This document shows positions 3,771 to 42,419 of a stretch of 64,000 nt of DNA, in pieces (the first letter of the stretch is position 1; each line of letters starts with the position of its first letter). The notes below the pieces were generated by a model. It had not been told where the DNA came from and made no database searches. It saw nothing but the letters and a program-made list of their open reading frames with translations. Source of the stretch: an uncultured Candidatus Saccharibacteria bacterium (GTDB lineage: Bacteria; Patescibacteriota; Saccharimonadia; Saccharimonadales; JACDBH01); the NCBI GenBank assembly GCA_964490245.1, contig CAZBAF010000005.1:3216-67215 (forward strand). Direction: 5' to 3'. The position numbers and the translations under genes were made by a program.

Positions 3771-6739
<2,969 letters not shown>

Positions 6740-23994: not shown

Positions 23995-24142
23995 TGGGGA
24001 TTGGCCATTCGCTGGCTAGCGAAGGTAAGGCAACGGTGAGAACTGCCAGTGGCAGTTTGGAAACGAACCTTCTCTTGAGAACTTGTTTTCAAAGTTGAAG
24101 TTCGGGGGTCGCGGAACGTGACTCTAGGTCCCGTGATCGGGG
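23995..24142 (+). pseudogene. mosaic tRNA-Gln 5' part: three exact tRNA pieces separated by insertions in the D-loop and anticodon loop
   Basis: Pieces 23995-24007, 24024-24036 and 24127-24142 are identical to the intact tRNA-Gln. A 16-nt hairpin (24008-24023) replaces agt, and a 90-nt module (24037-24126) replaces gttct of the anticodon loop. Confidence 0.75.
24037..24126 (+). repeat. structured module I2 (90 nt) in the anticodon-loop position
   Basis: It starts tgagaactgccagtggcagtt and has a long hairpin at 24064-24104 and a small hairpin gtcgcg-gaa-cgtgac. It is a paralogue of 24143-24262. Confidence 0.6.
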
Positions 24143-24262
24143 AGAGACATGCCACTGGCATGTCGCAAGGACATCAACTCTTGAGAACTATGTTCTCAAA
24201 GATGTTGTGTCGGGGTCGCAGGATGTGACGGCGGAACGTCGGTCGAATCCGGGTTCGAACCC
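24143..24262 (+). repeat. left-type structured module I3 (120 nt) in the T-loop position
   Basis: agagacatgccactggcatgtcgcaagg, a long hairpin at 24171-24210, gtcgca-gga-tgtgac, and a terminal ggtcgaa-tccggg-ttcgaacc. It is collinear with 1331-1452. Confidence 0.6.
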
Positions 24263-24289
24263 TTTGTATGTTAAAATCAGAGTAATTAT

Positions 24290-24363
24290 TGGGGATTGGC
24301 CAAGTGGTAAGGCAACGGGTTCTGGTCCCGTGATCGGGGGTTCGAATCCCTCATCCCCAGCCA
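24290..24363 (+). tRNA. tRNA-Gln (anticodon CTG), CCA encoded
   Basis: tggggattggccaagtggtaaggcaacgggttctggtcccgtgatcgggggttcgaatccctcatccccagcca. Confidence 0.9.
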
Positions 24364-24381
24364 AGCATAAGCACTATGAAA
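24358..24381 (+). repeat. 24-bp direct repeat DR1 (tRNA-Gln 3' end plus flank)
   Basis: cagccaagcataagcactatgaaa is identical to 26625-26648. Both copies are followed by a gacttc/gaagtc-type hairpin. Confidence 0.85.
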
Positions 24382-24406
24382 GACTTCCATCAGAGAAGTC
24401 TTTTTG
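24381..24406 (+). terminator. terminator hairpin after tRNA-Gln
   Basis: agacttc-catcaga-gaagtct-tttt. Confidence 0.7.
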
Positions 24407-24423
24407 TTTGTTATGATAATCCT

Positions 24424-24903
24424 ATGTCTTATTCTCAAAAATATTGTTTAGTCTCATTTATTAACCCAATTGGTACTAATACCGAGTTTGATATGACTGA
24501 TTGGCCATTACACGTTACATTGGCTGATGTGTTTGCAATAGATCTTCGCAAAACCAAAATTGAAGCTAAGCTAGAAAAACTATTATCAAGCCATCATCCA
24601 ATTAAAACGCTTGCAGGTATTGAAGCTACTCTAGGAACCACGGAAGTAATCTTGTTAGATAAAACCAAGGAGCTTGATGCTCTACATTCTAGTACGGTTG
24701 ATCTACTTGAGGATAACGGTGCACAATTTAATACTCCGGAATTCACAAGAGGGGGATTTGTGCCTCATTGCACCATTCAGAAGGTGGAGAGGCTACTTAT
24801 GGGTGATGAAGTGATTATTAGAAACATAGCACTCGTTGATATGTTCCCTAATGAAAATTGGCAGCAAAGAAAGATCATTAACATATTCAGATTACAGGAT
24901 TAG
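24424..24903 (+). CDS. 2H phosphoesterase superfamily protein (LigT / 2'-5' RNA ligase-like)
   Basis: Two H-x-T-x motifs (LHVTL and PHCTI) lie about 85 aa apart. The start is moved to the ATG at 24424, past the terminator hairpin. The sequence is AT-rich. Confidence 0.65.
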   Translation: MSYSQKYCLVSFINPIGTNTEFDMTDWPLHVTLADVFAIDLRKTKIEAKLEKLLSSHHPIKTLAGIEATLGTTEVILLDKTKELDALHSSTVDLLEDNGAQFNTPEFTRGGFVPHCTIQKVERLLMGDEVIIRNIALVDMFPNENWQQRKIINIFRLQD

Positions 24904-24949
24904 GCTTAAACTCTGTGATATAGATAGAGTTGCGAAGTACGTCACGTAA

Positions 24950-25012
24950 CCCCAGCCAGCAGCAAATTGAACTAATAGGTTCGAATGAAAGACTTCTTCG
25001 GAAGTCTTTTTT
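24950..25012 (+). repeat. middle att-like unit: ccccagcca (tRNA-Gln end) plus ggttcgaat plus terminator hairpin
   Basis: ccccagcca at 24950-24958, then atgaaagacttc-ttcg-gaagtcttttt, which resembles the segment after DR1. Confidence 0.6.
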
Positions 25013-25042
25013 ATTTGATTGACATAGGTTACATTACTTCAT

Positions 25043-26584
25043 ATGCCCTCTCTCTACATTAATCAGCAAACTGAAGCCGAGAAGGACGATTACTTATTCG
25101 ATTGCTTTCACGACACAGGCGTCATTTCGGAATTGGTTCATTCAAGGTATACAATTTTGGCAGGCCGTAAAGGCATGGGAAAATCAGCAGTCGCAAGATA
25201 TCTTGAAAAGAATGCTGAAAAATACGATCTTGATTTTGTTTTCAAGTTATCGATCCGCAATTTTAACATAAAGCGGTTTGATACTGAAAAGAACACTCTT
25301 GACTCTATTCTGTACTATGTAGTGGTCAAGTCTATACAGAAAATGCTTAATGTTAATTATTTTTCTAATGAAGCAGCCAAATACTGGAAGGACTTTTTAC
25401 TAGATAATGGCCTACAGCAGCTAGCCGATTATGAATCTTTTGTGACCACAAAAAAATCCCGAAAAACTGGGTTTTCTATAAAAGCAGTAGCTTCCTACCT
25501 ATTTGCTAAAGGCGAAGGCAGCACAAAGTTGAATTTCGAAACTGAAAAGCAACGTGCCGAAATTGCCGACTCACCATCTTCTCTATTTGATTCTCTTCGA
25601 CAGAGTATTAATCCTAAACATAAAGTAATCATTTTTATTGATGATATTAGCGATTACCTAGACGAATCTGACAGAAACGTATTATTAAAAGATCTTGCTA
25701 TCATTCAAAACCTTCTATTAAATTTGCAAACCTATAACCTTAATTTTGCAGAGGAGGAGCTGAATCTTCGTTTTGTATCATTGGTTAGAGACGACATCTT
25801 TGAGTACATGGAAGGCTCGAATGTAAATAAATTAAAAACGGATAGCTTGAAACTTGTTTGGGATGAAAAGGCTTTTGCAAGTTTGCTTATTCGACGAATG
25901 CCCTATTTTGCCGACAAGCTAGATGAGGCGCTTGAAAACCCAGTGACTTCACTTAAGGAACGTTTTCCCGATGATATATTTACGGACTTCCTAAAGTCAT
26001 TCTCGACAAACCGATACGGCAGTAACTTCTATGCATACATGGCGGCAATATCATTCAACAGACCCCGTGATTTCCTTCAGTTTTGCTATGCGTTGCGTAA
26101 TCGTTTAAGTTTACGCCACCCTGCAACATTTGAGAACATTGATGCCGCAGAAATCGAATATTCCAATTATTTTATACAGGAACTGCGTGACGAACTATAC
26201 GTAGCTAGCAGGGTTTTTGATTATGACTTTAGTCAGGAGCGCATCGATCACTTAGTAGATATATTGAGTAAGAATGACATGTTTAACTCATCCCAATTAA
26301 AAACAGATCTCTCTGCCTTTATAGGCACAAAGACCAGCATCGGAAATAAAAAAATTGAAGCCTTACTCGCAGAGTTGTGGAGATACGGGGTAATAGGTGT
26401 TTCCGAAAAACCTACTAAATCTATAAAGCCAGCCAAAAAGACTACTCCCGAGAAAACAGAAAAATTAATACTTTTTAAGTATTTATCTGATTCAGCGGTC
26501 TTCACATCAGAGAAAATAAAAAACTACACATTTTACCTACATCGAGGCTTGTGGTGGTTTGCTAAAAAGAGACGAAACGATTAA
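25043..26584 (+). CDS. P-loop NTPase, uncharacterised (513 aa)
   Basis: Walker A GRKGMGKS, Walker B-like VIIFIDDISD, a later RPRD motif, and a long helical C-terminal region. The sequence is AT-rich. Confidence 0.7.
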   Translation: MPSLYINQQTEAEKDDYLFDCFHDTGVISELVHSRYTILAGRKGMGKSAVARYLEKNAEKYDLDFVFKLSIRNFNIKRFDTEKNTLDSILYYVVVKSIQKMLNVNYFSNEAAKYWKDFLLDNGLQQLADYESFVTTKKSRKTGFSIKAVASYLFAKGEGSTKLNFETEKQRAEIADSPSSLFDSLRQSINPKHKVIIFIDDISDYLDESDRNVLLKDLAIIQNLLLNLQTYNLNFAEEELNLRFVSLVRDDIFEYMEGSNVNKLKTDSLKLVWDEKAFASLLIRRMPYFADKLDEALENPVTSLKERFPDDIFTDFLKSFSTNRYGSNFYAYMAAISFNRPRDFLQFCYALRNRLSLRHPATFENIDAAEIEYSNYFIQELRDELYVASRVFDYDFSQERIDHLVDILSKNDMFNSSQLKTDLSAFIGTKTSIGNKKIEALLAELWRYGVIGVSEKPTKSIKPAKKTTPEKTEKLILFKYLSDSAVFTSEKIKNYTFYLHRGLWWFAKKRRND

Positions 26585-26624
26585 GCCAGACTTAAAACTT
26601 GGTTCTAATATTGTCGCTGATGCT

Positions 26625-26648
26625 CAGCCAAGCATAAGCACTATGAAA
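26625..26648 (+). repeat. 24-bp direct repeat DR2
   Basis: Identical to 24358-24381. It is followed by a degenerate hairpin aaaaactt-ttccgg-aagtcttt. Confidence 0.85.
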
Positions 26649-26711
26649 AACTTTTCCGGAAGTCTTTCATTTTATGCTTGTTTATAAAATTATAAATTCT
26701 AGTATGTCGGT

Positions 26712-27119
26712 ATGAGGCCGAGTGTGACCCAGAAGCTGGATTATGGATGTGGTGTTGCCTGCTTTGCCTTTATCTGTGATATGACATTTGAGCAGGCGGT
26801 AGAGTTCTTGGGTAAAGAGTATAGCGTTAAGCATGGCTGGCGCCCAAGTGATCTAGTGATTAAATTGAATGAAAGAGGCTATAAATACAAGAACCGCTAT
26901 GTTCGCAAAAAACCAAACATTACTTTTCCTATCGGAACCATCGTTTTAATTGAGAGGTCAGCAAAGTATCCTGTCGGGCACTACTTGGCTTTGGGCGAAG
27001 GTGGCTGGATGGACCCTTGGATTAATTTGCCTATTTCGAATAATTTATCATTTGCAAAATCAGGGTTTAGGGAAAAACTTCCGGGCAAGGCTATATACGC
27101 CCTTATACCAATTCCATAG
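26712..27119 (+). CDS. papain-fold cysteine peptidase-like protein (C39-like)
   Basis: Q-x5-GCGVAC (oxyanion Gln plus catalytic Cys context), then GHYLAL and a later DPW, which is the order seen in C39-type peptidases. 135 aa. Confidence 0.5.
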   Translation: MRPSVTQKLDYGCGVACFAFICDMTFEQAVEFLGKEYSVKHGWRPSDLVIKLNERGYKYKNRYVRKKPNITFPIGTIVLIERSAKYPVGHYLALGEGGWMDPWINLPISNNLSFAKSGFREKLPGKAIYALIPIP

Positions 27120-27240
27120 CTGAAAGTTGCGAAGTACGTCTACTAAGGGCGGCCAAGTTAAGTGCCCGCTTTCGAGCGGGCTTTTAACTTGGTGCGGATC
27201 AAAGAGCAAGCTGCTTTGCCTTTAGGGTTTCGGCTCGTAA

Positions 27241-27265
27241 GTCGAATCCCCTTATCCGGTGCCGC
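27241..27265 (+). pseudogene. possible degenerate tRNA-Gln 3' part (T-loop to acceptor)
   Basis: gtcgaatccccttatccggtgccg against gttcgaatccc-tcatccccagcca gives a 9-mer plus 8 of 13 matches. It is preceded by a gcaagctgctttgc hairpin like the module hairpins, and it overlaps the last codons of the FMN reductase gene. Confidence 0.3.
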
Positions 27266-41154: not shown

Positions 41155-41271
41155 AACACCCCCTAGTTTATGCTTATGGTTGAGCCCATTATCTGGCTTT
41201 GCTTTTGGTAAGTCAATGACGTTTGTGTTTTTACGTCCGCTTCGTTATAGTGAAAGTGCTTAACAACCTAA

Positions 41272-41384
41272 ATATCAAGAGTGCAGCGAGAGTCCTAGCT
41301 CTGTGACCTGCCAGCAACCTGCTTAATAAGGCGAAGCCGTAAGTAAGGTGCTTCATCTAGCCGCCTGTATGGGTGGAAAGATAT
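41272..41384 (+). promoter_or_regulatory. SAM riboswitch (SAM-I clan) upstream of metK
   Basis: aUAUCAAGAG...GAGAG...GCAACC...AAGGUGC...aaGAUAU, with P1 pairing auauc/gauau. The downstream hairpin tatcctttc/gaaaggata plus T-run (41394-41429) covers the RBS. Confidence 0.65.
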
Positions 41385-41429
41385 GTTTTCTCGTATCCTT
41401 TCAGCTATATAGGCAGAAAGGATATTTTT

Positions 41430-42419
41430 ATGTCAAAACCAATTTACAGAACTGCAGAGTCGGTAAGTCCAAGGCACCCGGACAAAATCTGCGATCAACT
41501 ATCGGATGCGATTTTGGACGCATACCTGGCAGAAGATCCTGATGCGCGTGTGGCTGTCGAGGCTGTCGGCGGACACGGCAAAGTATTTGTGACGGGTGAG
41601 GTGACTAGCATTGCACATCCGAACATAGAGCCCATCATCAAGCGCATCGCAGGCGAGAATATTGAAGCAGAAGTGCGGTTGGTCAGGCAGAGTCCGGAGA
41701 TTGCGCAGGGCGTTGACATAGGCGGCGCTGGCGACCAAGGCATAATGGTAGGCTATGCTACGGATGAGACTCCGGAACTTTTGCCGCTTGAAGTTGTGCT
41801 AAGTAGAAAACTCAACCAACACCTTTACAGTATCTGGCCGCATGACGGCAAAACGCAGGTAACGCTCAAGAATGGCATTATCCAATCGGCTGTTGCCAGC
41901 TTTCAGCACGCGTCAGGACGTGAGCTGAGGAAAGCGGTTGCCAGGTGGCTAGAGGAAAACGGGTATGACCCCGGCAACGTTGAAATACACGCCAACCCGG
42001 CGGGCGATTGGCAGCAGGGCGGGTTTGACGCTGATACTGGCCTGACTGGACGTAAACTGGTGGTTGATAATTATGGTCCCCGGGTCCCAATTGGGGGTGG
42101 CTGTTTCAGCGGCAAAGACCCGAGCAAAGTCGACCGTTCGGCAGCCTACATGGCGCGTAAGGTTGCGGTAGATTACTTGAAAAAGCATGACGCCAAAGAA
42201 GTCTTTGTATACCTTGCCTATGCCATCGGCTACGCCCAGCCGCTTGAGGCGACGGTCATTATTGACGGCAGGCACGAAGAAATCAAGGGCTATGATTTGA
42301 CGCCGCGCGGGATAATCCAGGCCCTGGAACTGAGGCGCCCGATTTACGAACAGACTGCCAGGTACGGGCATTTTGGGCACGCCGGGTTACCGTGGGAGGA
42401 TGCTATACTCAAAGCATGA
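41430..42419 (+). CDS. metK: S-adenosylmethionine synthetase (short, 329 aa)
   Basis: [22 protein letters not shown]...[12 protein letters not shown]...[19 protein letters not shown]. Confidence 0.9.

Follow-up and report, generated by a model that had tools for sequence, protein, structure and literature searches.

Directly downstream of a tRNA-Gln gene, the stretch of 64,000 nucleotides from an uncultured Saccharibacteria bacterium that was analysed in this study (hereafter the window) contains an array of three low-GC cassettes, each composed of a terminator hairpin, a -10-like box, a single open reading frame (ORF) and a junction sequence (Table 1). Here we describe this array and its relation to a family of large serine recombinases (LSRs). 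The genomes of Saccharibacteria, which are ultra-small episymbionts, measure about 1 Mb, and the ways in which these bacteria acquire accessory genes are poorly understood. The GC content of about 0.51-0.57 in the flanks falls to 0.34-0.40 across positions 24350-27050, and Rfam recovered only the tRNA in this region. Proteins with 54-61% identity to the left flank protein are encoded in four metagenome-assembled genomes (MAGs) of Candidatus Saccharibacteria/Saccharimonadia. A search of public assemblies with proteins of the window returned one match, a contig of 1084 bp (L001) that is identical to the window, and no record of ORF2, ORF3 or the left flank protein was found in these assemblies. 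One homologue of ORF3 (P0121) is 99% identical; its genomic location was sought and not found.

The boundaries of the cassettes are defined by repeats. The 24-nt sequence CAGCCAAGCATAAGCACTATGAAA is present as two exact copies (24358-24381 and 26625-26648), as reported in a first-pass annotation of the same DNA. The copies lie within a 40-nt match at 88% identity, and the repeat is local to these positions, since its 18-nt part beyond the tRNA has only two sites in 64 kb with 0.04 expected (at up to three mismatches). A second repeat, AGTTGCGAAGTACGTC, is found exactly at 24928 and 27125 and nowhere else in the window, in a match that extends to 31 nt at 77% identity and ends in ..GCCA. The first-pass annotation had this repeat close the first and third unit, which it does, but the second unit is closed as well, by a diverged version of the junction at 26601-26630. 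The two repeats, initially described as separate, are two halves of one junction: the alignment of four boundaries reveals the order AGTTGCGAAGTACGTC-nnnnnn-SSS-CAGCCA, followed without a gap by AGCATAAGCA-hairpin, a T run, a -10-like box and ATG. At the boundary to tRNA-Gln, T-arm and acceptor of the tRNA replace the left part of the junction. The hairpin pattern ATGAAAGACTTC..GAAGTCTTT is matched at 24985 and 26643, with a chance expectation of 0, and a third copy of the GACTTC/GAAGTC hairpin with a longer loop is located at 24376. All three copies of this hairpin, which had been assigned to each unit in the first pass, fold as predicted, and two of them (24378-24404 and 24987-25010) pass a terminator scan, the latter within the shorter repeat unit noted before at 24950-25012. 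In the first cassette, the terminator-like part is the inner section of a compound hairpin (24378-24404) and is followed by a T run, and in the predicted fold AGCATAAGCA constitutes the outer stem of this trailer hairpin, its pairing partner being ..TTATGCT.., which adjoins the -10-like box. The GC-rich trailer past the last cassette (27156-27195) shares its CCA-pairing hairpin design with the trailers of tRNA-Phe and tRNA-Val of the window.

The presence of one low-GC ORF per unit, encoding a 2H phosphoesterase and a P-loop protein in the first two cases, is borne out by family matches (Table 1), with ORF2 showing a weak match to AAA_16 as well. The assignment of ORF3 as C39-like peptidase stands in part: ORF3 itself has no match in Pfam, but among its 284 homologues, which are mostly from Saccharibacteria/Patescibacteria, a few carry PF03412 (Peptidase_C39), and the label is thus plausible. 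ORF1 most likely starts at 24424 rather than at an ATG inside the hairpin (24376), and the -10-like boxes, judged by their sequence, may act as promoters. PADLOC found no defence-family match for the three cargo proteins.

Table 1. Features of the cassette array downstream of tRNA-Gln (window coordinates)
Feature	Position	Strand	Evidence and remarks
tRNA-Gln(CTG), encoded CCA	24290-24363	+	ARAGORN; Rfam tRNA, 61.7 bits; array anchor, left half of attachment site
Core CAGCCA, last 6 nt of tRNA-Gln	24358-24363	+	common to junctions
Cassette 1, 595 bp	24364-24958	+	GC 0.36-0.40; bounded by tRNA CCA (left) and junction 1 (right)
'X' repeat AGCATAAGCAC.., outer stem of compound hairpin	24366-24415	+	fold -14.7 kcal/mol, z -2.6
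Extended -10-like box TGTTATGAT	24409-24417	+	ends 6 nt before ATG at 24424
ORF1, 159 aa, 2H phosphoesterase / 2'-5' RNA ligase-like, cargo	24424-24903	+	PF13563, E 3.9e-10
Junction 1, AGTTGCGAAGTACGTC-ACGTAA-CCC-CAGCCA	24928-24958	+	nhmmer E 1e-4; antisense WLGLRDVLRN, LSR tail scar
Cassette 2, 1672 bp	24959-26630	+	low GC; bounded by junctions 1 and 2
Terminator-like hairpin GAAAGACTTC-TTCG-GAAGTCTTTT, then T run	24987-25010	+	terminator scan, fold
ORF2, 513 aa, Sll1717-family P-loop ATPase, cargo	25043-26584	+	NF047389, E 1.5e-49, 169 bits (cutoff 75)
Junction 2, diverged, GGTTCTAATATTGTCGCTGATGCT-CAGCCA	26601-26630	+	17 nt past ORF2 stop; abuts AGCATAAGCA after CAGCCA; antisense WLSISDNIRT
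Cassette 3, 525 bp	26631-27155	+	bounded by junctions 2 and 3
Second 'X' copy AGCATAAGCAC.., long compound hairpin with ..TTATGCTTG	26629-26680	+	fold -18 kcal/mol, z -2.8
ORF3, 135 aa, C39-like papain-fold protein, cargo	26712-27119	+	homologues
Junction 3, AGTTGCGAAGTACGTC-TACTAA-GGG-CGGCCA, distal array end	27125-27155	+	nhmmer E 9e-10; antisense WPPLVDVLRN
GC-rich trailer/terminator, CCAAGTTAAG-GCCCGC..GCGGGC-CTTAACTTGG, host composition	27156-27195	+	terminator scan; fold -28.4 kcal/mol, z -6.5
Degenerate copy of tRNA-Gln 3' end (..GTCGAATCCCCTTATCCGGTGCC)	27231-27262	+	repeat comparison

The junction is not confined to the window. A scan of metagenomes with the pattern AGTTGCGAAGTAYGTC-N11-GCCA identified it in at least 120 contigs, some of which contain as many as four exact copies, and a junction model iterated with nhmmer over the collected loci located 213 junctions in 110 non-redundant loci, with up to eight per contig; array L072 contains about 10 junctions if diverged copies are counted by eye. 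These loci were picked for at least one exact junction, so that the counts describe such loci and not the prevalence of variants or of the LSR; their contigs are short. At positions left free in the pattern, the consensus CACTAG is conserved at 66-97%, with four of the six positions exceeding 90%. Wherever a locus bears a tRNA, the junction is located downstream of it on the same strand, following tRNA-Asn(GTT) at 16, tRNA-Gln at 15 and tRNA-Trp at six loci. Between junctions lie 103 internal units, half of which are longer than 674 bp (median; interquartile range 493-1145), and 70 of them encode a single ORF of 70 aa or more. The ORFs are predominantly co-oriented with the tRNA (117 of 143), and their stop codons precede the junction by a median of 15.5 nt. 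Among 116 ORFs, 73 Pfam families are represented, and this very diverse cargo includes NUDIX, GNAT, HAD, glyoxalase, APH, ANT(2''), NERD and signal peptidase, and homologous cargo genes are shared across arrays anchored at tRNA-Gln, tRNA-Asn and tRNA-Trp.

Related arrays were compared with that of the window and with each other. The Saccharibacteria MAG L002 shares synteny with the window, and its counterpart of the tRNA-Gln has a single-gene unit of 1 kb downstream, which ends in AGTTGCGAAGTATGTC-CACTAG-CCCCAGCCA. Diverged versions of cassette 3 are found in the arrays of L129 and L132, with 81% and 76% amino acid identity, and at the nucleotide level positions 26670-27157 of the window are 71% identical to 7958-8447 of L129, in an alignment that covers the promoter region onwards and stops at the junction. 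In L129, a Saccharimonadales contig of 1.1 Mb, this copy occupies roughly the fifth position in a tRNA-Gln array, among different neighbours. Two pairs of contigs from different samples (L058/L066 and L063/L085) are 99.5-99.6% identical through GCCA and unrelated right after. The proposal of the first-pass annotation, that the region grew by tandem accretion or as an integron-like array at the tRNA, is thus supported by a junction that bounds mostly single-gene units in more than 100 other contigs and at which near-identical strains split, and the observations that this annotation had named as refuting it are not borne out. A separate observation concerns a 1.1-kb insertion or deletion between two contigs of 94-97% identity (L057, 500-1621, compared to L010). 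It starts with ..TCAGCCA followed by GGCATAAGCGCC-hairpin-TATAAT, a left end of the cassette type, sits at the end of a gene that is not a tRNA and has no recognisable right junction; it may mark a secondary insertion site.

The origin of the junction is illustrated by the only recombinase that recurs in a clustering of ORFs across the loci. This protein is about 500 aa long and is identified as an LSR by its Resolvase, Recombinase and zinc-ribbon domains. Full-length genes (Resolvase + Recombinase + Zn_ribbon_recom) are present at four loci (L094, L023, L108 and L032), and the same domain set is found in L126-L128. In reverse complement, the junction reads TGG-CTN-CCN-CTA-GTG-GAC-GTA-CTT-CGC-AAC and translates to W-L-P-L-V-D-V-L-R-N, which is the C-terminus of the LSR in L023 (..SWLPRVDVLRNF..) and in the database members P0072 and P0092. 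By its sequence, the junction is an LSR gene 3' end that has been split off, and the three junctions of the window encode versions of the same tail (Table 1). The wider LSR family comprises 1280 proteins (E <= 1e-20), whose members end in ..KKPFDTMAFCxxNxNW, followed in most cases by residues that correspond to an antisense tRNA and in others by L-P-L/I-V-D-V/A-L-R-N. The antisense-tRNA tails include LRRLDSNQRPRS and LGMRDSNPRSRDQNPLPYHLANP, the latter being the peptide obtained when the tRNA-Gln of the window is read antisense, and the sequences of such members identify them as integrated copies. Among P0001-P0120, integration swaps the last 10 or more residues (..W-LPLVDVLRN..) for antisense-tRNA residues (..W-LRRLDSNQRPRS), and because the tail is replaced, free and integrated LSR differ at their C-terminus.

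Variant junctions in L072 retain W-[LQ]-x-[LI]-x-D-x-[LV]-R-[NT] by codon-style changes, which indicates that the tail motif has evolved as coding sequence. Junction 2 of the window is, from its sequence, probably a scar of a different subtype of LSR tail: it shares 20 of 30 positions with the variant junction AGTTCTAACTTCGTCCAGAATGGTCTGCCA of L072 in a position-by-position count, and its tail pattern resembles WLGLVDDSRTL of the LSR in L108. On the other side of the junction, AGCATAAGCA was considered as a remnant of LSR coding sequence and rejected, as its frame is lost among variants and LSR-like codons are found at only 2 of 185 junctions. The best matches of the LSR in phage and plasmid collections are at most 32% identical, neither the protein nor its profile has relatives among the viral contigs of IMG/VR, and the junction pattern has no match in viral contigs. 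The elements that carry the LSR gene are thus uncatalogued as viruses.

Such elements are found in complete form. In L126, an element of 5371 bp displays the order tRNA-Gln, LSR (antisense, with its stop codon within the tRNA), rolling-circle replication protein (Rep), SMODS and small ORFs, and junction; L094, with 8187 bp, is its counterpart at tRNA-Asn. The Rep (PF23343, REP_ORF2-G2P) is encoded upstream of the LSR in L126, L127 and L128 and is absent from the window. When the right and left ends of L126 or L094 are joined, an open LSR frame is restored with the tail ..NWLPLVDVLRNF.. (WLPLVDVLRN), which places the attachment site of the element (attP) within the 3' end of the LSR gene. The same attP configuration is contiguous in L127, which contains Rep and LSR in the absence of a tRNA. 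In L126 and L023 the junction is directly followed by a second LSR 3' end, and elements thus enter in tandem beside a tRNA that is already occupied. At 5977-6115 of L126 (in tRNA orientation), the right junction of the complete element precedes the second LSR 3' end, so that two autonomous elements share one tRNA-Gln. The cargo of the L126 element includes the SMODS gene, a nucleotidyltransferase of the type found in cyclic oligonucleotide-based anti-phage signalling systems. In full elements the equivalent of the trailer hairpin resides within the LSR codons for KKPFDTMAF, and since a hairpin is also located at the left end of the cassettes, any unit landing after CCA would bring a new terminator for the tRNA. 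No internal 'X' sites that would permit a precise deletion of the LSR gene were found in the full elements. Contig L131, the sole contig with matching ends, was considered as a circle and rejected, since its ends are explained by assembly breaks at repeats.

The position of the crossover was narrowed by comparing junctions and tRNAs in 64 pairs from the same contig. Their last six nucleotides agree in 94-100% of the pairs; agreement drops to 52% at position -7 and to 17-48% beyond it, which leaves shared 6-nt cores of CAGCCA (Gln), GAGCCA (Asn) and CTGCCA (Trp). In five related LSR-type attPs, dyad symmetry peaks between -6 and -5 (49 of 120 positions match), which lends weak support. From these alignments, the crossover most likely occurs within the dinucleotide at acceptor positions 71-72, which is CA in Gln, GA in Asn and CT in Trp, and such a location would also account for the target specificity. 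A different candidate, an inverted repeat of attP formed between the GAAGT of the tail repeat and the ACTTC of the hairpin, was abandoned because this arrangement is present at only 8 of 119 junctions, which show no consistent dyad symmetry.

Taken together, we consider it probable that the three-unit array was built at the CCA end of tRNA-Gln by site-specific recombination of this LSR family, with the LSR supplied in trans. The LSR gene runs antisense to the tRNA and spans its own attP, with the TGG codon of Trp being the complement of the CCA of the tRNA and the succeeding codons (L-P-L-V-D-V-L-R-N) being AGTTGCGAAGTACGTC read backwards. Beyond this anatomy, the mechanism that we infer would proceed as follows. 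Upon integration the element body would become attached to the tRNA, and the codons of the LSR tail would stay behind at the far end as a scar consisting of tail and 6-nt core. A new unit would enter next to the tRNA regardless of the downstream occupant, and because entry is always beside the tRNA, older units would be pushed outward and internal boundaries would consist of tail and core followed by the next unit. With each unit, the tRNA or the gene before it would gain a new trailer or terminator hairpin, and the single gene of the unit would come with a -10-like promoter. The units of the window would be LSR-less cassettes that were inserted, and are possibly excised, by an LSR acting in trans from an autonomous Rep+LSR element.

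Several observations weigh against this account. Canonical LSRs require two half-sites and avoid attL, and the present family would thus need an unusual tolerance, as junctions vary in what follows GCCA on the right and no general dyad symmetry was found across LSR-less junctions. Neither circular cassettes nor empty sites were recovered from the contigs examined. The first-pass annotation had seen no integrase, and we agree, as tblastn with the LSR family over the 64-kb window gave no match and Pfam revealed housekeeping genes and no recombinase in 20 of its larger ORFs; the LSR search covered this window, and an active LSR in its organism is hypothetical. Since loci were selected for at least one exact junction, conservation at the positions fixed in the search pattern is by construction. 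Junction 2 was too diverged to be detected by the nhmmer model, for which reason its assignment is graded as probable only. Finally, the arrays contain LSR fragments, a distal C-terminal piece of 211 aa in L072 and pieces of 27-44 aa in L031 and L051, which implies that decay contributes. With respect to the first point, the repeated entry at the same tRNA with unrelated right sides does not conform to a strict attP x attB directionality, and tandem entry together with the heterogeneous right side suggests that this LSR family may depend mainly on left half-sites.

The most serious alternative takes decay as the sole process: full Rep+LSR elements would have accumulated and lost LSR, Rep and most of their cargo by deletion, with the remaining units being stumps that were never mobile on their own. 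The truncated LSR genes in L072, L031 and L051, the diverged junctions in L072 and at 26601-26630 of the window, the lack of an LSR match in the window and the tandem insertion of full elements are all compatible with such a history. Yet recognisable LSR 3' coding sequence follows only 2 of 185 junctions, and in 104 a stop codon is encountered within 16 codons of the W codon. The units are small and uniform and start exactly after GCCA with hairpin, -10 box and ORF, and random deletions would not be expected to hit the core precisely each time. It is the precision of these left ends that leads us to favour LSR-less cassettes moved in trans, and we regard decay as sole explanation as unlikely, while granting it a real share of the probability.

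Considerably less probable is a replacement island maintained by homologous recombination, where junction and trailer would serve as homology arms for transformed genes and no dedicated recombinase would be involved. Saccharibacteria have been reported to be naturally competent, and the shared ends of 30-50 nt are near-identical between unrelated cassettes. Such arms do not explain breakpoints at a single exact position after GCCA, a 6-nt core that tracks the anchor tRNA, or a junction that equals the tail of a recombinase gene whose frame is restored in complete elements, and 31 nt are short for efficient homologous recombination.

A comparison with integrons is invited by the layout of the arrays. 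In both cases a fixed chromosomal entry site is followed by small, mostly single-gene, co-oriented cassettes that each end in a conserved recombination site, the cargo is diverse and of the same flavour (GNAT, HAD, glyoxalase/bleomycin resistance, NUDIX and aminoglycoside-modifying enzymes), and arrays are often found without a nearby recombinase, as in clusters of attC sites lacking integrons (CALINs). A true integron with an IntI tyrosine recombinase, attI and cassettes bounded by attC has nevertheless hardly any probability in our estimate. No tyrosine recombinase was found in the window and none is recurrent in the loci, as judged by a crude motif screen of the loci, clustering and Pfam on 20 large ORFs of the window, and the enzyme linked to the arrays, a serine recombinase, rides on a Rep-encoding element instead of being located beside the array. 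Entry occurs at the CCA end of a tRNA and not at attI, the cassette end is a 31-nt sequence derived from the recombinase tail that begins with AGTTGCGA and lacks the imperfect palindrome and GTTRRRY core of the structured attC hairpin, and each cassette carries its own terminator and -10-like box in place of a shared Pc promoter. With a junction that stems from a split LSR gene, the array is integron-like in layout and no true integron. Equally negligible is the idea that the region holds ordinary terminators, repetitive extragenic palindrome-like repeats or a local duplication unlinked to mobility, for while the hairpins resemble intrinsic terminators, the repeats are found only at the array in the 64 kb (their general use as terminators being the case that the first-pass annotation had named against its own proposal), the same junction recurs in more than 100 other Saccharibacteria contigs after three particular tRNAs wherever a tRNA is visible, the base composition of the region is foreign and strains differ exactly at the junction.

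By analogy, the closest mechanistic parallels would be staphylococcal cassette chromosome (SCC) elements and tycheposons. In SCC elements such as SCCmec, the LSRs CcrAB or CcrC target the 3' end of a conserved gene for insertion, elements accumulate there as tandem arrays, and units without a recombinase that carry the same short repeats are presumably moved in trans. Their target is rlmH, in contrast to the 3' ends of tRNA-Gln, tRNA-Asn and tRNA-Trp described here, and their units span tens of kb compared to single genes of about 0.7 kb. To our knowledge, SCC elements encode no rolling-circle Rep and their attachment site is located outside the recombinase gene. An attP within coding sequence, where integration alters the C-terminus of a protein, is a feature of SSV1-type integrases and of the integration-dependent immunity of mycobacteriophages, where a tyrosine integrase or a repressor is split instead of the tail of an LSR. 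Tycheposons of Prochlorococcus share the integration at tRNA genes of a streamlined genome, with successive entries pushing older elements outward (bioRxiv 10.1101/2020.12.28.424599). They mostly employ tyrosine recombinases, with an LSR found in 27 of 937, and their islands contain degenerated elements, fragmented integrases and partial tRNAs (bioRxiv 10.1101/2020.12.28.424599). Whereas tycheposons are multi-gene elements flanked by partial tRNAs (bioRxiv 10.1101/2020.12.28.424599), the arrays described here display a 6-nt core and a recombinase-tail scar, and most of their units are single genes without recombinase remnant. The present arrays thus share tRNA anchoring and accretion with tycheposons, with a 'partial tRNA' of just 6 nt and differences in recombinase class and unit size.

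Other features at tRNA genes were observed in the window. Immediately upstream of tRNA-Gln, positions 23996-24270 resemble the 5' part of a tRNA-Gln with three inserts, which extend the D-loop by about 16 nt, the anticodon stem by about 88 nt and the T-arm by about 110 nt. The anticodon region reads TCTAGG, the 3' acceptor strand is absent, and the feature is called by neither ARAGORN nor Rfam. Two of its inserts share a repeat of about 50 nt (24069-24122 and 24175-24229) with a hairpin TTGAGAAC..GTTCTCAA, and comparable tRNA-Gln-like copies with an insert in the T-arm are located upstream of tRNA-Gln in L091 and L097. A second type of accretion, besides the cassette array, involves ORF-less units of about 150 nt, which start with a terminator hairpin, contain the hairpin GAATGTCCAGTGGACATTC and end in a partial copy of a tRNA 3' end of 14-22 nt that starts in the T-loop (for example GGTCGAGTCCCTCACAACCCACCA). 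Sites of this type are found at 1554-1723 (after tRNA-Val) and at 64-83 and 239-263 (after tRNA-Phe, minus strand), with two units in a row at tRNA-Phe. In L129, such a unit (5149-5319) is placed between tRNA-Gln and an LSR-type array, and a degenerate one follows the array of the window (27231-27262), which was probably left as a scar by an earlier integration of a different type. Elsewhere in the window, an S-adenosylmethionine riboswitch (RF00162, 54.7 bits, 41269-41387) is found directly upstream of the gene of S-adenosylmethionine synthetase (41373-42419), which is an ordinary arrangement.

Collectively, the junction of 31 nt, an LSR family of about 1300 public members and three tRNA targets point to a dedicated and widespread gene-collecting site. 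A full-text literature search, with most subscription journals outside its coverage, yielded no account of LSR cassette arrays, either for Saccharibacteria or for the candidate phyla radiation (CPR). We propose, tentatively, that these arrays are an independently evolved analogue of integrons in Saccharibacteria and perhaps other CPR, in which a Rep-borne LSR would capture, stack and release promoter-bearing single-gene cassettes at the CCA ends of these three tRNAs by recognising mainly left half-sites, provided by the T-arm and acceptor of the tRNA and the tail of the LSR gene; such recognition would leave the enzyme indifferent to the right flank and permit entry into occupied sites. An LSR aimed at the CCA end of a tRNA that tolerates any right flank might also be of interest for genome engineering. 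If LSR-less cassettes move in trans, the integron principle would have been invented a second time through an independent mechanism, and the junction of the system would be a simple sequence tag by which thousands of CPR accessory genes could be mined from metagenomes.

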